Below, in pieces: positions 1,324-42,521 of a DNA stretch of 64,000 nucleotides. Source of the stretch: Rhodocyclaceae bacterium (GTDB lineage Bacteria; Pseudomonadota; Gammaproteobacteria; Burkholderiales; Rhodocyclaceae); the NCBI GenBank assembly GCA_020445945.1, contig JAGRFQ010000028.1:28680-92679 (forward strand), in the 5' to 3' direction. Below the pieces are notes generated by a model, which worked only from the letters and a program-made list of their open reading frames with translations, was not told the DNA's origin and ran no database searches. The translations under genes were made by a program, and so were the position numbers. Each line of letters starts with the position of its first letter. The stretch's first letter is position 1.

Positions 1324-1755
1324 TTAAAGATACGAGGCGCGCGGCTCGCTCACCCCGTGCTCGGCCCAGTTCTCGATCACCAGGGCGTCGACGCGTTCAA
1401 ACTCGCGCACGTTGTTGGTGACGAGCGTGCAACCCAGCGCGCGGGCGTGGGCGGCGATCTGCAGGTCATACGGGCCGATTGGCGTGCCGCGCTGTTCGAG
1501 CTGGTGGCGAATGCGTGCGTAGTGGCCGATGGCGGTGTGCTCGAAGGGCGCAATTTCCAGCGGCAGAAGAAAGGTCTCCAGCGCCTGGCGGTTGCGCTCG
1601 GAGCCACTCTTCTCGACACCGAAGGCCAGTTCCATCGCGGTGATTGCCGACACGCCGATGTCGCCCACCGGGTGGGCATCGAAGCGTGCGCGCACGTGCG
1701 GTGGGCGGTGGTTGATGAGGTAGATGCAGATGTTGGTGTCGAGCATGTACCTCAC
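1324..1755 (-). CDS. vapC: VapC PIN-domain ribonuclease toxin
   Basis: [12 protein letters not shown]...ELAFG...[13 protein letters not shown]...[17 protein letters not shown], the classical PIN motifs; overlaps the vapB stop by 4 nt. Confidence 0.95.
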
Positions 1756-1982
1756 GGACGCAGCGCCTCGCGGGTCTGCATGGCGGGCTGGTCGCGCTCG
1801 ATGACGAAGCCCGGCTCGAAGGCGTCGAGCGCCGTAAACAGCGTGTTCCAGCCGTGTCGTGGGAGCAGCACCACCGCGTCACCCACGCGCTTGATGAAGA
1901 CCTCGTCGCCGTCGAAGCGGAATTCCTTCGGCAGCCGGACCGCCTGGCTGCGGCCGTTGATGAAGAGTTTTGCAGTGTCCAT
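1752..1982 (-). CDS. vapB: VapB/VagC AbrB-type antitoxin
   Basis: [34 protein letters not shown] signature. Confidence 0.95.
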
Positions 1983-4873: not shown

Positions 4874-4909
4874 GGCATGGTCCTCTTTTTTTATATGACT
4901 ACAGAGGCT

Positions 4910-4936
4910 GTTACGGCGACGCAGCATCGAACTTTA
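4910..4936 (-). promoter_or_regulatory. sigma28 (FliA) promoter of flgMN
   Basis: Minus strand TAAA-gttcgatgctgcgtc (N15)-GCCGTAAC. Confidence 0.8.
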
Positions 4937-4996: not shown

Positions 4997-5683
4997 TCAC
5001 GGTTCGATCCGCACCTCGCCGTTTTCGCTGGCCTCGCCCGACACCACCCGGCCGGATGCGAGGCGCACGCGCACCGTGTCGCCCAGCCGCGCGTTGCCTA
5101 GCGCGACCCCCTCGTTAGCGACCTGAAAACCGGTGCCCTGAACAATGACTTTGACCGGTCGGCCCGACTGGATGACGATCGGCTGGGCGACCATGGTGGC
5201 GCGCAGCGCCTGGCCGCGGGCGACGGCGAAGCGCATCTGGTGACCGATGGCCTGCGCCGGATCGGTGAGCAGGTGGCGGCCCATGGTAGTGAGGTCGCCG
5301 CGACGTTGGTCGAGGTCGGCCGCGGCGAGGATCTCGCCGGGGCGTAGCGCGCGTGCGCTGACCAGATAGTCGCCCACGACCTTGACCTCGGCCTGCACGT
5401 ACAAAGCCCAGTTGGCCTGGTCGACACAGCGTACGCCGACCCGCACCCGTCCCCACGCGCGGGCACCGGTGGGCAGCCACGGTTCGAGTTGATTGCACGG
5501 CGCAAGATGGCGCGGCAGCGTCGGCGGCGGCACGTCGATGCTGACCTCGCCGGGCTGGCCGGCGGTCTGCCCGCGCAGGAATTCGCGCACCACGGCGCGC
5601 ACGGTGTCGGCGCTCTGGGCGGCGGCGGCGAGCGGCAGCAGCGCCGTTGCGAACAGGATCAGGCGGGCGGCAATTTGTCTCAT
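4997..5683 (-). CDS. flgA: flagellar P-ring formation chaperone FlgA
   Basis: Signal peptide, Cys pair, SAF domain, 'GF.V..EG.AL.N...GD.VRVR..SGRVV'; divergent from flgB. Confidence 0.92.
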   Translation of the reverse strand: MRQIAARLILFATALLPLAAAAQSADTVRAVVREFLRGQTAGQPGEVSIDVPPPTLPRHLAPCNQLEPWLPTGARAWGRVRVGVRCVDQANWALYVQAEVKVVGDYLVSARALRPGEILAAADLDQRRGDLTTMGRHLLTDPAQAIGHQMRFAVARGQALRATMVAQPIVIQSGRPVKVIVQGTGFQVANEGVALGNARLGDTVRVRLASGRVVSGEASENGEVRIEP

Positions 5684-5757
5684 GGCGCTATTGCATCACG
5701 CGTGCGCGGTGCCGGCAACGGCGAACAGAGCCGGCTTTGAGCGCTTGTTCGGGCGAT

Positions 5758-5803
5758 CGGCAAAGCTTGCCGGTCGGGGGCGGCAAGCTTTGCGGGTTTG
5801 CCG
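5758..5803. promoter_or_regulatory. palindromic enhancer-like CGGCAA/TTGCCG array between flgA and flgB
   Basis: CGGCAA-AGC-TTGCCG (5758-5772), CGGCAA-GCT-TTGCGG (5781-5795), TTGCCG (5798-5803); includes a perfect 13-bp inverted repeat 5760-5772/5781-5793. Confidence 0.6.
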
Positions 5804-5880
5804 CCCCGCGGGGGGTGAAATGCTCGTGTTTTGGCGGCCTTTTCGGGCGATGGCGGGTGGTTTCGGCTGCGTAGGATGGC

Positions 5881-5896
5881 TGGCATGAAAGGTGCA
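5881..5896 (+). promoter_or_regulatory. sigma54 (RpoN) -24/-12 promoter of flgB operon
   Basis: TGGCATGAAAGGTGCA = TGGCA..GG-N10-GC..TGCA, about 60 nt upstream of flgB. Confidence 0.65.
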
Positions 5897-5954
5897 ATGG
5901 GTGAGGTGCCCGCGGCGCCAGTGGCTCCCGGCAGACGAACACAAGCGAGGTGAC

Positions 5955-6362
5955 ATGATGACCAACCGGCTCGACAAGGAACTGCAATTTCACCAGAGCG
6001 CCCTCAACCTGCGGGCGTATCGGCAGCAGTTGCTGTCATCGAACATCGCCAACGCCGACACGCCTAATTACAAGGCGCGCGACATCGATTTCACCAAGGC
6101 GCTGGGCAGCGCGCTGGATGCGCGGCTGGGGCCGCTGGCGCTGGCCACGACCTCGAACCGTCATCTGTCGCCGGCCGCTGCGCACCCCGCCGAGGCACTG
6201 GCGCAGTATCGCAACGATCAGCAGGCGAGCGTGGATGGCAACACCGTGAATATGGACGTGGAGCGCGCCGCCTTTGCGGAGAACGCGCTGCACTACGAGG
6301 CGAGCATCACCTTCATCAACGGTCTGCTGCGCTCGATGCAGAGCGCCGTCCAGAGCCAGTAA
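5955..6362 (+). CDS. flgB: flagellar basal-body rod protein FlgB
   Basis: RQQLLSSNIANADTPNYKARDIDF, DGNTVNMDVE; GAGG RBS. Confidence 0.96.
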   Translation: MMTNRLDKELQFHQSALNLRAYRQQLLSSNIANADTPNYKARDIDFTKALGSALDARLGPLALATTSNRHLSPAAAHPAEALAQYRNDQQASVDGNTVNMDVERAAFAENALHYEASITFINGLLRSMQSAVQSQ

Positions 6363-6376
6363 GGGGGTAGCGCGCG

Positions 6377-6781
6377 ATGAGCATGCTCAACGTTTTCAAG
6401 ATTGCCGGCTCGGCGCTCAATGCGCAGTCGGTGCGGATGAACACCACCGCCTCGAACATGGCCAACGTCGATAGCGTGGTCGGCCCCGACGGCCAGCCCT
6501 ACAAGGCCAAGCAGGTGGTGTTTTCAGCCAGGCCGATCGACGGCGCGCAGTCGGTTGGCGTGAAGGTCGAGCAGGTGGTCAATAGCGCGGCGCCGGGGCG
6601 CATGGTGTATGACCCGGCCAGCCCGGCGGCCAACGCCGAGGGCTATGTCGAGATGTCCAACGTGAACGTGGTGGAGGAGATGGTGAACATGATCTCCGCC
6701 TCGCGTTCCTACCAGGCCAACGCGGAAGTGATGAACACCGCGCGAACGCTGCTCCAGCGCACGCTGAGCATCGGTCAGTAA
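6377..6781 (+). CDS. flgC: flagellar basal-body rod protein FlgC
   Basis: [14 protein letters not shown]...PYKAKQVVF...[21 protein letters not shown]. Confidence 0.96.
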
Positions 6782-6801
6782 GACTGTCAGGAGAGAACAC
6801 C

Positions 6802-7470
6802 ATGGCCACTGTCGCCGCCACCGGAAGCGCCCAGCAGATTCTCAACAGTCTGGGTCGGACCGATACCGCCAGCGAGGTGGAGGACAACGGGCAGAGCCGT
6901 TTTCTGACTCTGCTCACCACCCAGCTCAAGAATCAGGACCCGCTCAACCCGCTCGACAATGCGGAGGTGACCTCGCAGCTGGCGCAGATCAGCACCGTCG
7001 ACGGCATCGAGCGCCTGAACACGATGCTCGGCCAGATCATGCAGGGCCAGCAGTCGAGCGAGGCGTTGCAGGCGGCGCAACTGGTCGGACGCGGGGTGCT
7101 GGTGCCGGGCAACGGGCTGGTGCTCACCGAGCAGGGGGCGCTGGGCGGCTTTACGCTGGATGCGGGTGCCGAGGACGTGACGGTGAGCATCACCGACGCC
7201 AACGGGCTGGAGATCGCGAACGTGAATCTCGGGGCCCACGAACTGGGCACCCACAGCTTCCAGTGGGATGGCACGGCGATCGATGGCTCGCAGGCGGTGG
7301 CTGGCGAATATCTGGTGAAAGTCACCGCCAGCAGCGGCGAAGACAACATCGGCGTGAAGGCGCTTGAACTCGGGCAGGTGTCGAGCGTGATCCGCGGGCC
7401 GACGAGCGTCGACCTGCAAGTGGGCCCGCTGGGCATTTTCCAGCTTTCTGAAATTCAGCAGATTCTCTGA
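6802..7470 (+). CDS. flgD: flagellar hook capping protein FlgD
   Basis: FLTLLTTQLKNQDPLNPLDNAEVTSQLAQISTV. Confidence 0.96.
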   Translation: MATVAATGSAQQILNSLGRTDTASEVEDNGQSRFLTLLTTQLKNQDPLNPLDNAEVTSQLAQISTVDGIERLNTMLGQIMQGQQSSEALQAAQLVGRGVLVPGNGLVLTEQGALGGFTLDAGAEDVTVSITDANGLEIANVNLGAHELGTHSFQWDGTAIDGSQAVAGEYLVKVTASSGEDNIGVKALELGQVSSVIRGPTSVDLQVGPLGIFQLSEIQQIL

Positions 7471-7484
7471 CCGGGAGCGAAGAC

Positions 7485-8711
7485 ATGGCTTTCCAACAAG
7501 GTTTGAGCGGACTTAACGCCGCCTCCAAGTCGCTTGACGTAATCAGCAACAACGTCGCCAACTCCGGCAACGTGGGCTTCAAGTCAGGCACGACGCTGTT
7601 CAACGACGTCTATGCCGCGGCGCTCAATGGCGCTGCCTCCGGGGTGCAGGTCGGCATCGGCACCGCGGTCGGTGCGGTGGCGCAGCAGTTCAGCCAGGGC
7701 AATATCACCCCCACCAACAATCCGCTCGACATCGCCATCAACGGCAACGGCTTCTTCCGCGTGAGCGGGCAGGGCACGATCGCCTACACCCGCAACGGCC
7801 AGTTCGATGTCGACAAGGACGGCTTCGTCACCAGCGCCAGCGGCTACCGGCTGACCGGATATCCGGCCGATGCGTCGGGCAACATCCTGCCGGCCTCGCC
7901 GATCGAGCTGCAGATCAACACCTCCGACCTGCAGCCGCAGCCGTCGGCGACGGTCGAGGTCGGGCTGAATCTGGATTCGCGCGAGACCGCGCCGGCCACC
8001 AGCCCGTTCAGCGCCACCGACCCGACCTCGTACAACGCCTCGACCTCGGTCACGCTGTACGACTCGCTGGGCAACTCGCACATCCTGACCACCTACTTCG
8101 TCAAGACCGCGACCGGCGGCCAGTGGAACCTGCACACCCAGCTCGACGGTGCCGCGGCGGTGGCTTCGTCTTCCAACCCGATCACCTTCAACGGTGCCGG
8201 CGCACTGACCGCCAACGCGACACACAGCCTGTCGCTGACCATTCCGGCGTCTTACGGCGCCAACTCGCCGCAGGCGGTGACGCTCGACTTCACCGGCAGC
8301 ACGCAGTTCGGCAGCGCCTTCGGGGTCAACCGCCAGTCGCAGGACGGCTATGCCTCGGGGCGGCTGACGGGGGTCACGATCAGCTCGACGGGGATCTTGC
8401 AGGGCCGTTACTCCAACGGCCAGTCGCGCGATCTCGGGCAGGTCGTGCTGGCCAACTTTGCCAGCCCCAACGGGCTGCTCTCGCTGGGCAACAACCTGTG
8501 GGGCGAGGCGCCCGATTCCGGCCAGCCGCTGGTCGGAGCGCCGGGGTCGAGCAGTCTCGGCCTGCTCTCGGCCGGTGCGGTGGAGGAGTCGAACGTCGAC
8601 CTCACCGCCGAGCTGGTGAACATGATTACCCAGCAGCGCGCCTACCAGGCCAACGCGCAGTCGATCCGCACCCAGGACCAGATTCTGCAAACCCTGGTCA
8701 ACCTGCGCTGA
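7485..8711 (+). CDS. flgE: flagellar hook protein FlgE
   Basis: GLSGLNAA..LDVISNNVANS..GFK, YTRNGQF, ESNVDLTAELVNMI.QRAYQAN. Confidence 0.96.
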   Translation: MAFQQGLSGLNAASKSLDVISNNVANSGNVGFKSGTTLFNDVYAAALNGAASGVQVGIGTAVGAVAQQFSQGNITPTNNPLDIAINGNGFFRVSGQGTIAYTRNGQFDVDKDGFVTSASGYRLTGYPADASGNILPASPIELQINTSDLQPQPSATVEVGLNLDSRETAPATSPFSATDPTSYNASTSVTLYDSLGNSHILTTYFVKTATGGQWNLHTQLDGAAAVASSSNPITFNGAGALTANATHSLSLTIPASYGANSPQAVTLDFTGSTQFGSAFGVNRQSQDGYASGRLTGVTISSTGILQGRYSNGQSRDLGQVVLANFASPNGLLSLGNNLWGEAPDSGQPLVGAPGSSSLGLLSAGAVEESNVDLTAELVNMITQQRAYQANAQSIRTQDQILQTLVNLR

Positions 8712-8733
8712 TCCGGATAAGGGGTGAGTCGCC

Positions 8734-9474
8734 ATGGACAAGCTGATCTACACCGCAATGACCGGCGCCAAGAGCACGCTCGGCCAGCAGGCCGCGGCGT
8801 CGCACAATCTGGCCAACGTCACCTCCACCGGTTTTCGCGCCGAGTTGCACAAGCTGCGCGCGGTGGAAGTGCAGAACGCGCCGCTGCCCAGCCGCGCCTT
8901 CGTGGTCGATGCCAGCATCGGCACCGACTACACTGCCGGCCCGCTGCAATTTACCGGCCGCACCTTCGATGTCGCGGTCGAGGGCAAGGGCTGGATGGCG
9001 GTGCAGGGCGCCGATGGCGGCGAGGCCTACACCCGCGACGGCAGCTTTGCGCTGTCGCCCGAAGGCGTGCTGCAGACCCGCGACGGGCGGCCGGTGATCG
9101 GCGACGGCGGCCCGATCACCATCCCGCCGGACAACGACGTGGTGATCGGCAAGGACGGTTCGATTTCCGCCATTCCGAGCACCGGCGACAAGAACGCGGT
9201 CAACGTGGTCGGCCGGCTCAAGCTGGTCAACCCGCCCGAAGCCGGGCTGGTGCGCGGCGACGATGGCCTGTTCCGTCTCGCTGGCGGCGCACCGGCGCCG
9301 GCCGATGAGGCCGTGCAGGTGGCCGGCGGCTATCTGGAAGGCAGCAACGTGAATGTGGTCGAGCAGATGGTGACCATGATCTCGCTGGCGCGCCAGTTCG
9401 AGATGCACACCCAGGTGCTGCGCAAGGCCGAGGCCAACGATCAGGCCGCGACCAAGCTGCTGAGCACCGGTTGA
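8734..9474 (+). CDS. flgF: flagellar basal-body rod protein FlgF
   Basis: MDKLIYTAMTGAK...NLANVTSTGFRA; LEGSNVN.VE.MV.MI..ARQFEM. Confidence 0.96.
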   Translation: MDKLIYTAMTGAKSTLGQQAAASHNLANVTSTGFRAELHKLRAVEVQNAPLPSRAFVVDASIGTDYTAGPLQFTGRTFDVAVEGKGWMAVQGADGGEAYTRDGSFALSPEGVLQTRDGRPVIGDGGPITIPPDNDVVIGKDGSISAIPSTGDKNAVNVVGRLKLVNPPEAGLVRGDDGLFRLAGGAPAPADEAVQVAGGYLEGSNVNVVEQMVTMISLARQFEMHTQVLRKAEANDQAATKLLSTG

Positions 9475-9488
9475 GGCGTGAAAGTGGC

Positions 9489-9524
9489 GGCGTTTTCGGC
9501 GCCTTCTCGGCCGACGAAAACGCC
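9489..9524 (+). other. intergenic stem-loop between flgF and flgG
   Basis: GGCGTTTTCG (9489-9498) / CGAAAACGCC (9515-9524) perfect 10-bp arms; no U-tract after it. Confidence 0.55.
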
Positions 9525-9598
9525 TCGCGTCACGCTAGATTAGACACATTGGCGGCCCGCGCCGCGAACACAGCGCCCCGCGCGCGAAGGAGTCCGAC

Positions 9599-10381
9599 AT
9601 GATCCGCTCACTGTGGATTGCCCGCACCGGCCTGGAGGCCCAGCAAACCCAGCTCGACGTGATCTCCAACAACCTGGCCAACGTGTCGACCAGCGGTTTC
9701 AAGCGCTCGCGCGCGGTGTTCGAGGATCTGCTCTACCAGACCCTGCGCCAGCCCGGCGCGCAGTCGACGCAGCAGACCCAGATCTCCAGCGGTCTGCAGA
9801 TCGGCACCGGCGTGCGCCCGGTGGCGACCGAGCGGATTCACACCCAGGGCAACCTGCAGCAGACCGGCAACGGGCTGGACGTGGCGATTCAGGGCAGCGG
9901 ATTCTTCCAGGTGTCGCTGCCCGATGGCACCACCGCCTACACCCGCGACGGCGCCTTCCAGCTCGACAGCCAGGGCCAGATCGTCACCGCCAGCGGTTAT
10001 CCGCTGTCGCCGGCGATCATCGTTCCGGCCGACACCCAGACGCTGACCATCGGCAAGGACGGCACGGTCAGCGCGCAGCAATCCGGGCAGACCTCGCCGA
10101 CCCAGATCGGCACCATCCAGATCGCCACCTTCGTCAATCCGGGCGGCCTGCAAAGCGCGGGCGAAAACCAGTTTCTCGAAACCGCCTCCAGCGGCACGCC
10201 GACCCCCAACACGCCGGGGAGCAACGGCGCCGGGGTGCTCAACCAGAACTATGTCGAGACCTCGAACGTGAATGTGGCCGAAGAGCTGGTGCAGATGATT
10301 ACCACCCAGCGCGCCTACGAGCTCAACTCGCGCGCCATCCAGACCTCCGACCAGATGCTCGGCCGGCTGACCCAGCTGTAA
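9599..10381 (+). CDS. flgG: flagellar distal rod protein FlgG
   Basis: [47 protein letters not shown]. Confidence 0.97.
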
Positions 10382-10402
10382 GCGAGTGAGCGGAGAGCCC
10401 CG

Positions 10403-11071
10403 ATGCGTGCCCTGATCTGTGCATTGCTGCTCGCCGTGCTGAGCGGTTGCGCGGCGCTGGATCGCACACCCCCGACGGCAGTGCACCAGCCCATGTCGGC
10501 GCGGCCGCAGGTGGCGATGCAGATGGTGCCGGCCAATGGCGCGATCTATCAGCCGACCCACACCCGACCACTGTTCGAGGACCGCCGCGCGCGCCTCGTC
10601 GGCGACACGCTGACCATCAACCTGGTCGAACGCAACACCGCGCAGAAGGCCTCCAACGCCAGCGCCAGCCGCGAATCGTCGATGTCCGGCGGTATCACCT
10701 CGATCAACAAGCTGCCGCTCAAGGGGCTCGCCGGGCTGGGGGTCGAGGCGGGGGCCGACAGCGATTTCTCCGGCGAGGGGGCCGCCGCGGCCAACAACCT
10801 GTTTACCGGCACCATCACCGTGACCGTGATCGAGGTCTATCCCAACGGCAACCTGCTGGTCTCCGGCGAAAAGCAGGTGGCGATCAACCAGGGCAACGAA
10901 TTCATCCGCTTCTCCGGGGTGGTGAACCCGGCCACGGTGACCACCAGCAACACCGTGCAATCCACTCAGGTGGCCGATGCGCGCATCGAATACAAGGGCA
11001 GCGGCTACATCAACGACAATCAGGTCATGGGCTGGCTGCAGCGCTTCTTTGTCGCGCTGCTGCCGTTCTGA
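10403..11071 (+). CDS. flgH: flagellar L-ring lipoprotein FlgH
   Basis: Lipobox LSGC; [31 protein letters not shown]. Confidence 0.96.
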
Positions 11072-11089
11072 GGCCTGCGGAGCACGCAC

Positions 11090-12208
11090 ATGAACCGGCA
11101 CATCGATCGTTTGCGTCGCGTGGTGCTTGGCGCCGTGCTCGGCATCGCGCTGCTGGGCAGCGCGCAGGCCGAGCGGATCAAGGATCTGGCCACCATCGCC
11201 GGCGTGCGCAGCAACCAGCTGGTCGGTTACGGCATCGTCGTCGGTCTGGACGGCAGCGGCGACCAGACCACCCAGACCCCGTTCACCGTGCAGAGCATCA
11301 TCAACATGCTCGGCAACATGGGCGTGCAGATGCCCACCGGCACCAACCTGCAGCTCAAGAACGTGGCCGCGGTGATGGTCACCGCCGACCTGCCGCCTTT
11401 CGCGCGGCCGGGCCAGAACATCGACATCACCGTCTCGTCCATCGGCAACGCCAAGAGCCTGCGCGGCGGCACGCTGGTGATGACCCCGCTCAAGGGGGCG
11501 GACAACCAGGTGTACGCCATTGCCCAGGGCAACGTGATCGTCGGCGGCGCGGGCGCGCAGGGGGCCGGCGCATCGGTGGTGGTCAATCACCTGTCGGCCG
11601 GGCGGATTCCGGCCGGAGCGACGGTCGAGCGCGCGGTGCCGACGGCGCTCGGGCAGGGCGACGTGATCCTGCTCGAACTCGAACGGATGGACTTCGGCAC
11701 CGCCAACCGGATGGTCGAGGCGATCAACGCCGCCACCATGCCGGGGCAGGCGCAGGCCCTGGACGGGCGCACGGTGCAGGTCCGCGCGCCGGCCGATCCG
11801 TCGCTGCGGGTGGCCTTCCTCGGGCGCCTCGAAAATCTGCAGGTCACGCCCGAGCAGGGCGCGGCGACGGTGATCATCAACTCGCGCACCGGCTCGGTGG
11901 TGATGAATCAGGCGGTCACCCTGCAGCAATGCGCGGTGGCCCACGGCAATCTCACCGTGTCGGTCAATACCGAACCGGTGGTCAGCCAGCCCAACCCGCT
12001 GGCCGGCGGGCGCACGGTGGTGGCCGAGCGCGGCGAAGCCAGCGTCGACCAGGCCGGCGGGGTGCTGATGCAGGTGCGCGGCGGCGCCAATCTGGCCGAT
12101 GTGGTCAAGGCGCTCAACACGCTCGGTGCCAACCCGATGGACCTGATCAGCATTCTGCAGGCGATGAAAGCCGCCGGCGCGCTGCGCGCCGATCTGCAGG
12201 TGATCTGA
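11090..12208 (+). CDS. flgI: flagellar P-ring protein FlgI
   Basis: ERIKDL...[45 protein letters not shown]. Confidence 0.97.
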
Positions 12209-12220
12209 GGCCGCACGGCG

Positions 12221-13156
12221 ATGACTTCCGCGCTGCCGGTCAACACCCTCGATCCCAATGCCATTGCCGACCTGAAGCGGCTGGCGCGGGACAACGATCC
12301 ACAGGCACTCGAAGCGGCGGCGAAGCAGTTCGAGTCGCTGTTTCTGTCGATGGTGCTCAAGTCCATGCGCGCCGCAATGCCGTCCGGCGGCCTGATGGAC
12401 AACGACCAGACCAAGCTCTACCAAAGCCTGCTCGACCAGCAGCTTGCCGCGAACATGGCGGCCAGCGGCGGCACCGGGCTGGCCCGCGCGCTGGTGCGCC
12501 AGATGAGCGGCGACCCGATGCAGGCGCCGGCCGCGGCGGAGGTGAGCGCCGGCTTCGACATTGCCAGCGTGGCGCGCCGACCGGCAAATGCTGCCGCCGC
12601 GACGCTGCCGCCGGTGGATCTTGCCGGGCGCAGCACGCCGCTTCGCCGCACGGCCACCATCGAGGCGACGCCGGCCGAGATTTCGCGCGATGCCGAGAGC
12701 TTCGTGCGCGAGCTGTTGCCGCACGCCCAGGCGGCGAGCCGCGCGACCGGCATCCCCGCCGAGTTCATGATCGCCCAGGCGGCGCTGGAAACCGGCTGGG
12801 GCAAATATCAGCTGCGCGACGCCAACGGCCAGCCGAGCTACAACCTGTTCAACATCAAGGCCGGGCGCAGCTGGCAGGGCGGCACGGTGAGCGTGGCGGC
12901 GACCGAATACGTGGATGGCCGCGCGCTGAGCGAGACCTCGCGTTTCCGCGCCTATGGCTCGTATCGCGAGAGTTTCCGCGACTATGCGCGCCTGATCGGC
13001 ACCAGCCCGCGCTACGCCGAGGTGGTCGGCCAGCAGGACGCGGCCAGCTTTGCGCGCGAGCTGCAGGCGGCCGGTTACGCCACCGATCCGCGTTACGCCG
13101 AGAAGCTCACCCGCATCATCAACGGCCCGACACTGCGCGGCGCCTTCCCCGGTTGA
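12221..13156 (+). CDS. flgJ: flagellar rod cap / peptidoglycan hydrolase FlgJ
   Basis: AAKQFESLF...LKSMR; GH73-type AQAALETGWG, NLFNIKA, GYATDP.YA.KL. Confidence 0.96.
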   Translation: MTSALPVNTLDPNAIADLKRLARDNDPQALEAAAKQFESLFLSMVLKSMRAAMPSGGLMDNDQTKLYQSLLDQQLAANMAASGGTGLARALVRQMSGDPMQAPAAAEVSAGFDIASVARRPANAAAATLPPVDLAGRSTPLRRTATIEATPAEISRDAESFVRELLPHAQAASRATGIPAEFMIAQAALETGWGKYQLRDANGQPSYNLFNIKAGRSWQGGTVSVAATEYVDGRALSETSRFRAYGSYRESFRDYARLIGTSPRYAEVVGQQDAASFARELQAAGYATDPRYAEKLTRIINGPTLRGAFPG

Positions 13157-13241
13157 TCGGTCACGTCGCCGCCTGGATGCCGCGTGGCGGCCTTCGGGGG
13201 CGTGGTCGTGCGCCTGCGCCGTTCGTCGATTGCGCGCCAAC

Positions 13242-13273
13242 TGGCATAAGTTTTGCAGCGTTCCAGTCGTAAC
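13242..13273 (+). promoter_or_regulatory. overlapping sigma54 and sigma28 promoters of flgKL
   Basis: TGGCATAAGTTTTGCA (13242-13257, GG-N10-GC) nested with TAAG-N15-GTCGTAAC (13247-13273). Confidence 0.65.
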
Positions 13274-13296
13274 AGTCTCAGCGACAAGGACTCACC

Positions 13297-15228
13297 ATGG
13301 CAGGCATGCTCAACATCGGTATCACCGGGCTCAACGCCGCACAGGCGGGGCTCAACACGACGAGCCACAACATCGCCAACGCGTCGACCGCCGGTTTCAG
13401 CCGTCAGAGCGTGGTGCAGAGCACGCTCGATCCCTTGTTCAGCGGCGCCGGCTTCTTTGGTCAGGGCACGCAGATCGACACGGTCAAGCGCTCCTACAGC
13501 CAGTTCCTCGAAAACCAGGTGCTGTCGGCCGACACCAAGCGCGCCTCGCTGGCGGCCTACGAAACCCAGATCAGCCAGATCGACAACCTGCTCGCCGACC
13601 CCACCGCCGGGCTCTCGCCGGCCTTGCAGAGCTTCTTTGCCGGGGTGCAGGAGGTGGCTGCCAACCCGTCGAGCGTGCCGGCACGCCAGGCGATGATCAG
13701 CAGCGCGCAGGCGCTGGCCTCGCGCTTCCAGTATCTCGACGCGCGGCTGTCGGAGATCCGTCAAGGCGTCGAGGGCAACATCTCAAGCACGGTCGATACC
13801 ATCAATGCCTACGCCACCGAGATTGCCGCGCTCAACCAGCGCATCGTCACCGTCGAGTCGGCCGGCGCGAGCGTGCCGGCCAACGATTTGCACGACCAGC
13901 GCAACAACCTGATCCGCGAACTCAACGGGCTGGTGCGGGTGAGCACGGTGGCCGAAGACAACGGCTCGCTCAGCGTGTTCATCGGCAACGGTCAACCGCT
14001 GGTGGTGGGCGTGCAGACCACGACCCTGAGCGCCACGCCAAGCCTCGAAGACCCGTCGCGCCTGGCGATCGGCCTGCTGCTGCCCAATGGGGCGTCGGTG
14101 CAGATGCCCGAGAGCCTGCTCAGCGGCGGCACCCTGGGCGGGCTGCTCGAGTTCCGGCGCGATACGCTGGATGTGACCCAGAACAAGCTCGGGCTGGTGG
14201 CCGCCGGGCTGGTCGAGACCTTCAATGCCCAGCATCGCCTCGGCCAGGATCTGGACGGCAATCTGGGGCTCGACTTCTTCACCCCGCTGAGCCCGACGGT
14301 GCGCGCGGTGGGCAGCGCCACCGGCACGCCGACGGTGGCCTTCGGCGATCCGGCCAAGCTCACCGGCGGCAGCTACCGGCTGACCTATACCGACACCAGC
14401 GGCGGCTATGCGCTGGTCGATCGTGCCACCGGCAACGCGGTCAGCGCGGCCAGTGTCGGCATCACCATCACCCCGCCGGGGACGACCGTGGTGGGCGAGG
14501 CCTTCGTGATCGAGCCGACGCGCCGGGCGGCCGAAGACATCCGCGTGGGGATCGGCGATACGCGGCTGGTGGCCGCGGCCGGGCCGATGCGCAGCGTGGC
14601 TGGCGGCAGCAATCTGGGCAGCGCCGCGGTGGATGCGCTGAAGGTCACCAGCGTGGCCGGCTTTGCGTCGGGTTCGCCGCATCTGGCCAGCTATTCGATC
14701 ACCTACAACGGTTCCAGCCAGTACGAAGTGCGCGATGCCAGCAACACCCTGATCGGCACCGTGGCCTACAACCCGGCGACCGACTCGGCGGGCGTCACGC
14801 GCACCTTGCCGGCGCCGCTGGGCGGCATCGACATCACGCTCTCCGGGGTGCCGAGCACCGGCGACAGTTTCACCCTCGAGAGCAACACCAATGGCGTTGC
14901 CGACAGTACCAACGCGGTGGCGCTCGGGGCGCTGCAAACCGCCAAGACCCTGCTCGGCGCGGGGGGCAACCCGACCGCCAGTTATCAGTCCACGTACTCG
15001 AATCTGGTCAGCCAGATCGGTAACAAGACCAATGAGATCAAGGTCAGCATGGCGGCGCAGGAGGGCTTGCTCGAACAGGCCACCGCGAGCCGCGAGGGGC
15101 TCTCCGGGGTCAACCTCGACGAGGAGGCCGCCAACCTGATCCGTTATCAGCAGGCCTATCAGGCGTCGGCGCGGGTGATGTCGGTGGCCTCGACCCTGTT
15201 CGACGAAATTCTGAGCATTGCGCGATAG
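13297..15228 (+). CDS. flgK: hook-associated protein FlgK
   Basis: GL.AAQ..L.TT.HNIANA.T.GFSRQ; SGVNLDEEAANL.RYQQAYQASARV. Confidence 0.96.
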   Translation: MAGMLNIGITGLNAAQAGLNTTSHNIANASTAGFSRQSVVQSTLDPLFSGAGFFGQGTQIDTVKRSYSQFLENQVLSADTKRASLAAYETQISQIDNLLADPTAGLSPALQSFFAGVQEVAANPSSVPARQAMISSAQALASRFQYLDARLSEIRQGVEGNISSTVDTINAYATEIAALNQRIVTVESAGASVPANDLHDQRNNLIRELNGLVRVSTVAEDNGSLSVFIGNGQPLVVGVQTTTLSATPSLEDPSRLAIGLLLPNGASVQMPESLLSGGTLGGLLEFRRDTLDVTQNKLGLVAAGLVETFNAQHRLGQDLDGNLGLDFFTPLSPTVRAVGSATGTPTVAFGDPAKLTGGSYRLTYTDTSGGYALVDRATGNAVSAASVGITITPPGTTVVGEAFVIEPTRRAAEDIRVGIGDTRLVAAAGPMRSVAGGSNLGSAAVDALKVTSVAGFASGSPHLASYSITYNGSSQYEVRDASNTLIGTVAYNPATDSAGVTRTLPAPLGGIDITLSGVPSTGDSFTLESNTNGVADSTNAVALGALQTAKTLLGAGGNPTASYQSTYSNLVSQIGNKTNEIKVSMAAQEGLLEQATASREGLSGVNLDEEAANLIRYQQAYQASARVMSVASTLFDEILSIAR

Positions 15229-15237
15229 GAGACGACC

Positions 15238-16401
15238 ATGCGAATCAGCACCAGCATGCTCTTCCAGACCGGCGTCAGCACGATCCAGAAGCAGACCGAA
15301 AAGCTGCTCCAGACGCAACAGCAGGTGGCCACCGGGCGGCGCATCGTTGCCCCCTCGGACGACCCCATCGCCAGCGCGCGGGCGCTGGAAGTGACGCAGG
15401 CACGCAATCTGAATACCGCGTGGCAGACCAACCAGGGCTATGCCACCGATTCGTTGGGGCTGCTCGAGAACAAGCTCGCCGCGGTCGAGGAGATCTACAT
15501 CCACACTCGCACTCGCGCGCTCGAGGCCGGCAACGGCAGCTACTCGGACAGCGAACTGGCGTCGATTGCGATCGATGTGCGCGCCAACTTCGATGCCTTG
15601 CTGTCGCTCGCCAACAGCCAGAACGGGCAGGGCGAGTATGTGTTCTCGGGCTATCAGGCGGACACCCAGCCCTACACCGGCAACCTCAACGGGGTGAGCT
15701 TTCAGGGCGATCAGGGCCAGCGCACCTTGCAGGTGTCGCCGTCGCGGATCATGTCGGTCAGCAATTCGGGCGCGGAAGTGTTCAACGCGGTGCGTGCGCC
15801 GCAGGGCAGCTTCTTCGCCGTGCCGGGGTCGCCCAACGGTGGCACCGGCCACGTGGCCGACGCGCAGACCACCGGCAGCTACGCCAACACGCGCTACAAC
15901 ATCGTGTGGGACGGCACCAACTACAACGTCACCAACGCCGATACCGGCGCCGCGGTGGTCAGCCAGAGCGGTCCGACGCTGAGCTTTGGCGCCGTGCAGC
16001 TGGAGATGGGCGGCACGCCGTCGGTTGGCGATGTGTTCGAGCTAGGCCCGCGTGCCAATGTGTTCAACATGTTCACCAACATGGTCCGCGCGCTGGAGAA
16101 TCCGTCGCCCACCGTCGGCATCGGCGGCGCCGTCGCGCAAGCGATCGCCGGCATGGATCAGGCGCTCGATCAGGAACTCAGCGTGCGTGCCTCGGTGGGC
16201 TCGCGGATGCTGGAAGTCGATGCGCTCGAATCCGTCGGCAGCGATCTCGACGTGCAATACGCCGAAACCCTGTCGCGGCTGCAGGATGTGGACTACGCCG
16301 AAGCGGTGAGCAACCTGACCCTGCAGCAGACCTATCTGCAAGCCTCGCAGCAGTCGTTCATGCGCATCACCAACCTGTCCTTGTTCAACTACCTGAGCTG
16401 A
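15238..16401 (+). CDS. flgL: hook-associated protein FlgL
   Basis: MRIST; TGRRI..PSDDP; LQDVDYAEA...LQASQQSF..I.NLSLFNYL. Confidence 0.96.
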   Translation: MRISTSMLFQTGVSTIQKQTEKLLQTQQQVATGRRIVAPSDDPIASARALEVTQARNLNTAWQTNQGYATDSLGLLENKLAAVEEIYIHTRTRALEAGNGSYSDSELASIAIDVRANFDALLSLANSQNGQGEYVFSGYQADTQPYTGNLNGVSFQGDQGQRTLQVSPSRIMSVSNSGAEVFNAVRAPQGSFFAVPGSPNGGTGHVADAQTTGSYANTRYNIVWDGTNYNVTNADTGAAVVSQSGPTLSFGAVQLEMGGTPSVGDVFELGPRANVFNMFTNMVRALENPSPTVGIGGAVAQAIAGMDQALDQELSVRASVGSRMLEVDALESVGSDLDVQYAETLSRLQDVDYAEAVSNLTLQQTYLQASQQSFMRITNLSLFNYLS

Positions 16402-41315: not shown

Positions 41316-41362
41316 AAAACGACATCCACTGCGCTGTTCGCTGCTGCCGGTCGCCGCCTGCG

Positions 41363-41381
41363 TGTAGGTCAAATTCCTACA
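41363..41381. promoter_or_regulatory. palindromic regulator box upstream of flhD
   Basis: TGTAGG-tcaaatt-CCTACA perfect 6-bp arms. Confidence 0.5.
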
Positions 41382-41499: not shown

Positions 41500-41817
41500 A
41501 TGAAGAGCGCCGACTTGCACGAACAGATCCGGGAAATCAACCTCGCCTACCTCATGCTCGCCCAGCAGATGGTGCGCGAGGACCGCGAAGCGGCCATGTT
41601 CCGGCTCGGCATCGCCGCCGACGTCGCCGAGTTGCTCGATGGGCTGAGCACCGCCCAGGTGGTGCGCATGGCCAGCCAGCAGATGGTGTTGTGCCGCTTC
41701 CGCTTCGACGACAGCGCGATGATCGGGATGCTCACCGGCAAGGGCCGCGACGCTGCGACCTCGTCGCTTCACGCCGCCATCATCGCCGCCGCCACCCCGG
41801 TGGAAGCGCTGGCCTGA
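41500..41817 (+). CDS. flhD: flagellar master regulator FlhD
   Basis: IREINLAYLMLAQQM...AMFRLGI...LCRFRFDD...H. Confidence 0.95.
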   Translation: MKSADLHEQIREINLAYLMLAQQMVREDREAAMFRLGIAADVAELLDGLSTAQVVRMASQQMVLCRFRFDDSAMIGMLTGKGRDAATSSLHAAIIAAATPVEALA

Positions 41818-41835
41818 GCCGGCACGGAGCCCATC

Positions 41836-42387
41836 ATGCGAAATAAAAGCGTTCTGGCCGAGGCTGAAGATATCCAGCGCGCGGTGGACATGATCCGCCT
41901 CGGCGCGCGCATGCAGATGCTGGAGACCGAGACCAAACTCAGTCGCGAGCGGCTGCTCAAACTCTACAAGGAAGTGCGCGGCGTCTCGCCCCCGAAAGGC
42001 ATGCTGCCGTTTTCGACCGACTGGTTCATGACCTGGCAGCCGAACGTGCACTCCTCGCTGTTCATGTCCTTCTACCGCTTCATGAAAGACGAGGCCGGTC
42101 TGAGTGACCTGGACGCCATCATCAAGGGCTTTCGCCTCTACCTCGACCACATCGAAGCCGAGGATCTCGACGAAGTGCTGAGCCTCACCCGGGCGTGGAC
42201 CCTGGTGCGTTTCTTCGATGCCGATTTGCTTCAGCAGGCCACCTGCACGTGTTGCGGCGGACATTACGTCGCGCATGCGTATGACCCGACGCATGAATTC
42301 GTGTGCGGCCTGTGCAACATGCCTTCGCGTGCCGGAAAGGGCCGTCGTGCGCGCAAAGGTGTCTCTGATCGTAGTGCCATGGTCTGA
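41836..42387 (+). CDS. flhC: flagellar master regulator FlhC
   Basis: LGARMQ.LETET.LSRERL.KLYKE..G.SPPKGMLPFSTDWF; Zn-binding C..C/C..C. Confidence 0.96.
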   Translation: MRNKSVLAEAEDIQRAVDMIRLGARMQMLETETKLSRERLLKLYKEVRGVSPPKGMLPFSTDWFMTWQPNVHSSLFMSFYRFMKDEAGLSDLDAIIKGFRLYLDHIEAEDLDEVLSLTRAWTLVRFFDADLLQQATCTCCGGHYVAHAYDPTHEFVCGLCNMPSRAGKGRRARKGVSDRSAMV

Positions 42388-42494: not shown

Positions 42495-42521
42495 TCAAGT
42501 TTCGCTTGGCAGGGCCGTTAG
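42495..42521 (+). promoter_or_regulatory. sigma28 promoter of motAB
   Basis: TCAA-gtttcgcttggcagg (N15)-GCCGTTAG. Confidence 0.72.

Follow-up and report, generated by a model that had tools for sequence, protein, structure and literature searches.

The window, by which we mean the whole 64,000-nucleotide stretch of Rhodocyclaceae DNA analysed here (part of a 3.1-Mb assembly, G000, that is 87% complete), contains flgA and, divergent from it, flgB and the rod, hook and ring genes that follow (Table 1). The spacer between flgA and flgB is 270 bases long. A preliminary description of this region had pointed to six CGGCAA/TTGCCG hexamers, a perfect 13-bp inverted repeat and a sigma54-type site, and all of them are present: CGGCAA at 5668, 5713, 5758 and 5781, TTGCCG at 5767 and 5798, repeat arms at 5760-5772 and 5781-5793, and the site TGGCATGAAAGGTGCA. 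Its picture of an upstream array of six needs trimming to five within the spacer, as the hexamer at 5668 lies in the flgA coding sequence, and of the CGGCAA-N3-TTGCCG dyads that it gave in the plural, one is exact while the second (5781-5795) has one mismatch.

Table 1. Features of the window that bear on the flgA/flgB spacer and its regulation (window coordinates; a dot marks features without assigned strand)
Feature	Position	Strand	Remark
sigma28-type promoter before flgM	4909..4936	-	
flgA	4997..5683	-	Pfam ChapFlgA
Predicted extended sigma70 -10 of flgA, TG-n-TGCAAT	5690..5698	-	hexamer at offset 27 from box A
FlhDC-type box A, GAACA-N18-TGTTC, predicted for flgA	5722..5751	.	matrix from 23 other genomes; genome-scan rank 11
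Exact CGGCAA-N3-TTGCCG dyad, predicted FleR enhancer	5758..5772	.	tracks FleR helix-turn-helix across genomes
Second dyad, one mismatch (5781-5795), and extra half-site (5798-5803)	5781..5803	.	
FlhDC-type box B, predicted for sigma70 promoter of flgB	5816..5845	.	genome-scan rank 5
Predicted sigma70 -10 of flgB, TAGGAT	5872..5877	+	offset 27 from box B
sigma54 -24/-12 site	5881..5896	+	GG 5882-5883, GC 5894-5895; predicted start near 5907
flgB to flgL, rod/hook/ring genes	5955..16401	+	flgB = 5955-6362
FlhDC-type box upstream of flgG, plus TAGATT (offset 27)	9480..9541	+	
sigma54 site before flgK	13242..13257	+	score at least 6 in 5/11 hybrids, 0/21 FlhC-only
flhD and flhC	41500..42387	+	full-length Pfam matches; FlhC cysteine cluster present
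sigma28-type promoter before motA	42495..42521	+	

Hexamers occur in this genome at 1.8 per kb, and the flgA/flgB spacer region is the sole place in the assembly where at least six of them fall within 136 bp. The exact dyad occurs six times genome-wide, five of these at or in flagellar genes; the copy in the spacer has its centre 118 bases upstream of the sigma54 GG. All 13 same-genus genomes with a flgB match retain the exact dyad together with the sigma54 site, while the second dyad is kept at no more than one mismatch in two of them (G002 and G006) and is degenerate in the others. The sigma54 site has the features of an enhancer-dependent promoter, being a conserved GG-N10-GC in a TGGCA...TGC context upstream of flgB, in a genome that encodes both rpoN and a cognate activator. 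At some distance from these genes, window positions 1324-1982 hold a putative toxin-antitoxin pair, called vapBC-like solely on the appearance of its translations.

The dyads are located between two copies of a second element, boxes A and B, which belong to a palindrome (consensus GAAnAgg.GG.gaattc.CC.ccTnTTC) found de novo in 23 genomes that encode FlhC and lack a full-length FleR. We take this palindrome as the putative FlhDC box on the evidence of its sequence and distribution. The matrix built from it recovers nine of ten held-out flhB promoters, and on 40 kb of E. coli it places the flgA/flgB, fliA and fliD sites among its top matches, although there a site within a gene scores above the flgA/flgB box, and neither fliE/fliF nor fliL reaches the top eight. 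The E. coli flgA/flgB match contains the FlhDC half-site core AAATAgcg, as given in the available text of a published study (PMC1935009). Across our genome, the highest rank goes to the fliF/fleS spacer and the second to fliO; box B (score 20.5, p=0.005 against 200 shuffles) is followed by fliA, flhB and flhF at ranks 6, 7 and 8 and then by box A, and each of these flagellar matches has a -10-like hexamer at an offset of 26-27, the remaining ranks 3, 4, 9 and 10 being non-structural-flagellar sites. The third-best of these boxes (C17:11871), which also has a -10, precedes a sugar-nucleotide cluster, possibly one for flagellin glycosylation. The palindrome thus has the make-up of an FlhDC class II promoter, namely a box that tracks FlhC, with a sigma70 -10 at fixed spacing.

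On the flgA side, an offset of 26-27 is the mode in FlhC-only genomes, and the -10 ends six bases before the ATG, a spacing from which the flgA transcript is likely leaderless. The flhF region (C26:87101) is also leaderless-looking, with a -10 hexamer that ends six bases before an ATG. On the flgB side, TAGGAT ends three bases before the sigma54 site, which itself lies at offset 36 from box B. FlhC-only genomes have a single box for both directions, with the flgB-side -10 hexamer at offset 27 in 12 of 20. A sigma70 start about seven bases past TAGGAT would fall within the sigma54 -24 element.

The regulators that these elements call for are encoded in the genome. The distance from flgB to flhDC is about 35.5 kb, in agreement with the earlier figure of about 36 kb. 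A genome search for rpoN, fleSR and fleQ, proposed in the preliminary description, returned one copy of rpoN and a fleS-fleR pair, but not fleQ; 13 of the 15 sigma54-activator matches listed were strong. On contig C20, fleS-fleR-fliE is divergent from fliF, and the FleR product has an intact receiver (REC) aspartate, Walker A motif and GAFTGA. A quick tree built on 78 activator domains (FlbD not among them) groups it with the FleR/FlrC proteins of Pseudomonas, Vibrio and others (support 93), and its domain order (REC-AAA-HTH), the kinase gene before it and fliE after it are those of the FleSR/FlrBC system, so an enhancer-binding protein of this clade, the absence of which would have told against the earlier proposal, is indeed present. 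The closest named FleR records are from Rhodocyclaceae. The genome also has fliA and flhF. In the same tree, the FleQ/FlrA clade (support 99) contains none of this genome's activators. A Pseudomonas FleQ query gave no match at E<=1e-95 in 161 genomes of the order (best match in a complete relative, 5e-80), while four of four gammaproteobacterial controls gave 1e-123 to 1e-157; tblastn with FleQ on this genome reached at most 37-54% identity, to general activators. Detection of FleQ through Pfam PF06490 was also tried and discarded, giving weak receiver-domain matches only. Since the genome is 87% complete, the case for a missing FleQ rests partly on its relatives.

Two other candidates at these loci were rejected. 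A second fleR (C20:8420-9994), which follows an NN gap together with the tail of another kinase gene, is nearer to the copy of another genus (74%) than to that of its own (68%), and relatives have one copy; it is likely a scaffold chimera and not a true paralogue. Feedback of FleR on flhDC had been suggested by an exact dyad before flhD (window 41430), which is kept in none of the 19 relatives with a flhD match among the 20 fetched, a degenerate copy being found in two same-genus genomes. Separately, a TGTAGG-N6/7-CCTACA palindrome lies 100-150 bases before flhD (window about 41350-41375) and also in most relatives fetched, with FleR present or absent, and is a candidate site for a regulator of flhDC.

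To see which element goes with which regulator, we used a sample of 160 Burkholderiales genomes at least 95% complete, with cut-offs of E<=1e-110 for FleR and E<=1e-30 for FlhC. FleR was found in 65, FlhC in 54 and both in 10, these last spanning five families and including one with a weak FlhC match. The region upstream of flgB was then compared in 70 genomes spread over families: 19 with both regulators (hereafter hybrids), 27 with FleR only, 23 with FlhC but no full-length FleR, and G055, set aside for its weak FlhC. The hybrid counts are not independent, since 6 of the 19 belong to one genus and 13 to one family. A sigma54 site (score of at least 6 of 8 on a simple in-house scale) precedes flgB in 18/19 hybrids and 27/27 FleR-only genomes, and in none of the 23 others, that is, in 45/46 genomes with full-length FleR against 0/23 without. 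The dyad, at no more than one mismatch, is present in 17/19, 24/27 and 2/23, respectively, so neither element follows FlhDC. G047 and G176 are the hybrids without the dyad. The two exceptions in the FlhC group (G099 and G151), both without a sigma54 site, retain parts of FleR: in G151, FleR lacks the receiver domain and fleS is missing; in G099, all that is left is a short reading frame, located between fliF and fliE, that encodes the FleR helix-turn-helix. A search with the FleR helix alone matched 69 of the 160 genomes and, among the 21 examined FlhC genomes within that sample, exactly these two, while the dyad is absent in all 19 sampled FlhC genomes without the FleR helix. The CGGCAA elements thus behave as FleR/FlrC binding elements would, in following the FleR DNA-binding domain, the link being one of correlation.

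These counts bear on the view that the dyad is a site for FlhDC or for some other regulator. The dyad does sit in the middle of an FlhDC-type box at fliF/fleS and at fliO, both without a sigma54 site; however, its presence in 24 of 27 genomes without strong FlhC, its absence from FlhC genomes without the FleR helix, and the citation of CGGCAA as a proposed FlrC motif in the available text of a Pseudomonas study, which also has it conserved at Pseudomonas flgB (10.1101/2021.08.29.457346), make this view very improbable. Still harder to credit is that the two regulators co-occur through a mixed assembly or as parts of two separate flagellar systems. Although our genome is a fragmented draft in which one fleR copy is apparently mis-scaffolded, FlhC and FleR are found together in 15/15 same-genus genomes, one of them a single contig, each genome of the genus has one flgB, and both kinds of site share one 270-base spacer; complete relatives already contradict either version.

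Some observations from the sample stand apart from this comparison. In G099, the helix-turn-helix-only frame (locus L300) sits behind an FlhDC-type box and may encode a stand-alone repressor, and the predicted flgA start site has the dyad close by. In G019, G022 and other FleR-only genomes, which have FleSR along with sigma54 promoters at flagellar genes, the searches detected neither FlhC nor FleQ. G016 and G023, which are near-complete and have no flgB or fleR match, keep flhC, which hints at a non-flagellar role.

The FlhDC-type box, in turn, goes with FlhC. It precedes flgB at p<=0.02 (200 shuffles) in 15 of 19 hybrids, the other four having no significant box, and in none of the 27 FleR-only genomes. 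Twelve of 18 hybrids, drawn from four families, and 1 of 27 FleR-only genomes have TAnnnT placed 8-9 bases ahead of the sigma54 site. The preliminary description had set flgB on sigma54 against the FlhDC/sigma70 control of enterics. The sigma54 site stands, but there has been no simple swap, as a box and a sigma70 -10 are kept and overlap it. One could read box B and TAGGAT as leftovers of a flgB promoter now driven by FleR and sigma54 only, or suppose that FlhDC at box B bends the DNA as IHF does elsewhere. No IHF-like consensus was found between the enhancer and the flgB promoter, box B is where a bending protein would sit, and the -10 is degenerate in 6 of the 18 hybrids. Against this, in the 12 hybrids that retain it, the -10 keeps the offset of 27 that is the FlhC-only mode, and the hybrid G030, which has full fleSR and a dyad but no sigma54 site, carries exactly such a box plus -10. 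We therefore consider this reading unlikely. With the FlhDC-type box and the sigma70 -10 kept, an rpoN mutant may retain some flgB expression.

The fleSR locus suggests how the two regulators are connected. In this genome, fleSR lies between the divergent fliF and fliE, behind the top-scoring FlhDC-type box, and the promoter scan of the genome returned no sigma54 site before fleS. The same arrangement, fliF divergent from fleS-fleR-fliE, is found in all 18 hybrid loci fetched, whereas among 13 loci without strong FlhC, ten have fliE-fliF after fleR as in Pseudomonas, two have the hybrid order and one has no flagellar neighbour. A box at p<=0.02 is present in the fliF/fleS spacer of 17 of 19 hybrids, mostly with -10 hexamers on both sides, and in neither of the two same-order loci without FlhC. 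At the centre of this box lies a dyad in 10 of 19 hybrids, all of one family. The preliminary description had envisaged both master-regulatory logics running one flagellum. Both are present, but not side by side: the lack of a detectable FleQ/FlrA and the FlhDC-type box before fleS would place FleR in a second tier under FlhDC.

Further sigma54 sites precede flgK, fliK and fliE, with no exact dyad near those of fliK or flgK. Separately, the end of a flagellin gene before flaG-fliD contains a sigma54-like site (C35:4216-4362), downstream of which are two near-dyads. The sites at fliE, fliK and flgK matter for another view, in which FlhDC and sigma70 alone build the flagellum, and FleR with sigma54 serves, as in P. 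putida, only to boost or safeguard under certain conditions. FlhDC-type boxes do cover the early genes and flgB, related lineages lost fleSR yet kept their flagellar genes, and the P. putida fleR deletion swims normally, with FleR dispensable and effects on flgB only 2-fold in the available text of that study (10.1101/2021.08.29.457346). In P. aeruginosa, by the accessible part of another report, FleR is essential (PMC8335546). The booster view is compatible with the wiring that we prefer, but none of the fliE, fliK and flgK sites has a counterpart among the 45 best FlhDC-matrix matches, so FleR may be required for these genes, and we regard the view as quite unlikely.

Taken together, the spacer is probably one node of a hybrid FlhDC-to-FleR cascade, in which flgB has overlapping sigma70 and sigma54 promoters. 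That the flgB operon answers to a FleR/FlrC-like activator, as the preliminary description proposed, is likewise favoured by the presence of rpoN and FleR and by a dyad and sigma54 site that track FleR across the order. From the elements and the fixed distances between them, the presence of flhDC, fleSR, rpoN and fliA, and the co-occurrence of elements with regulators, we infer binding, start sites, the order of events and a hand-over at flgB. In the proposed cascade, FlhDC would take FleQ's place in the first tier; FlhDC with sigma70 would drive fliF, fleSR, fliO, flhB, flhF, fliA, flgA, flgG and a first level of flgB in the second; phosphorylated FleR with sigma54 would act on flgB, fliE, fliK and flgK in the third; and sigma28 would serve flgM and motA in the fourth. 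Because the sigma70 start falls inside the sigma54 -24 element, two polymerases could not occupy the flgB promoter together, and it would pass between them; until FleR is active, the sigma70 promoter may also be damped by idle sigma54 polymerase. At early promoters where the dyad lies mid-box (fliF/fleS and fliO), FleR would likely repress, as FlbD does at Caulobacter ftr4, a role that this layout suggests by analogy.

Each component of this wiring is known, and it is the wiring that is new, although an earlier remark on it may exist. As in the enteric FlhDC/sigma70/sigma28 system of E. coli and Salmonella, flhDC lies before motAB-che, flgA/flgB and fliF/fliE are divergent, and a palindromic box has its sigma70 -10 about 27 bases away. 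Unlike in the enteric system, fleSR separates fliF from fliE, two boxes with the enhancer between them take the place of the one shared box, and sigma54 sites, of which E. coli spacers have none, stand at flgB, fliE, fliK and flgK; these sites, together with fleSR, set the arrangement apart from the three-tier enteric scheme. With the polar hierarchy of Pseudomonas and Vibrio (FleQ/FlrA, then FleSR/FlrBC, then sigma54), it shares FleS-FleR upstream of fliE, flhF and, judging from the available text on the V. cholerae RpoN regulon (PMC3439928), the sigma54 sites at flgB, flgK and fliK. It differs from that four-tier hierarchy in that no FleQ/FlrA was found, that fleSR has an FlhDC-type sigma70 promoter and no detected sigma54 site, and that fliF is divergent from fleS instead of following fliE. 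The Caulobacter ftr element resembles CGGCAA-N3-TTGCCG. There, too, a non-sigma54 master (CtrA) stands above a sigma54 activator (FlbD), which uses the same kind of site both to activate later genes and to repress fliF, according to the available portion of a review of RpoN-dependent flagellar genes (PMC3930126); here, by contrast, the master is FlhDC, the activator is FleR with its kinase FleS, and sigma28 is kept. Azotobacter vinelandii has flhDC and fleQ in one genome, and a paper on it states by its title that FlhDC, not FleQ, controls flagella (PMC2885672), whereas in our case the same promoters carry sites for both systems.

A search by title and opening abstract, with most subscription papers outside it, found no published description of the FlhDC/FleR-sigma54 combination. 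In their accessible text, the review of RpoN-dependent genes never mentions FlhDC (PMC3930126), and in a survey of polar flagellates FlhDC turns up a single time, within a reference (PMC7064773). For flhDC, the transcriptome study of Azoarcus olearius relies on analogy with E. coli (PMC8467165), and the two systems stay separate in two other papers (PMC13432727 and PMC6543871). So far as the reviews were available, FlhDC and FleQ/FleSR-sigma54 are treated as alternative programmes of different bacteria. The wiring proposed here joins both in one spacer, in Rhodocyclaceae and several other Burkholderiales families (closest named records Azoarcus, Rhodocyclaceae and Nitrosomonas).

To approach how this wiring arose, six Flg proteins were concatenated for 62 genomes; in the resulting tree, hybrids appear in three places among FlhC-only lineages; hybrids as a single clade were rejected (p-AU 1e-111; 30 of the 62 rows, quick LG+G4 tree). 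G093, with plain divergent fliF/fliE and one box, is the sister of the hybrid G042 (support 100), and G093, G030, G151 and G099 read as repeated decay from hybrid to FlhDC-only systems. The backbone of the tree gives no resolution between gain and loss at the root of the order, extension to that root or to the enterics is a hypothesis, and whole-cluster transfer may instead account for the distribution.

A wider reading, which we hold as possible but doubtful when all its parts are taken together, is that FlhDC over FleSR/sigma54 over sigma28 is a third self-standing hierarchy. If so, it would form an evolutionary bridge between the two textbook hierarchies; FlhDC-only systems, possibly the enteric one too, would descend from it by stepwise loss of fleSR, with divergent fliF/fliE as its trace; flgB would have a promoter with a sigma70-to-sigma54 hand-over switch built in; and truncated forms of FleR, down to a lone helix-turn-helix, would survive as repressors of FlhDC promoters. 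For Rhodocyclaceae and the other families with this wiring, the analysis gives a base-resolution, testable model of motility control, and for betaproteobacteria a usable FlhDC box and FleR dyad. The flgB spacer would offer a naturally occurring example in which sigma70 and sigma54 promoters overlap, and the lineages that carry it may be living intermediates between flagellar hierarchies.
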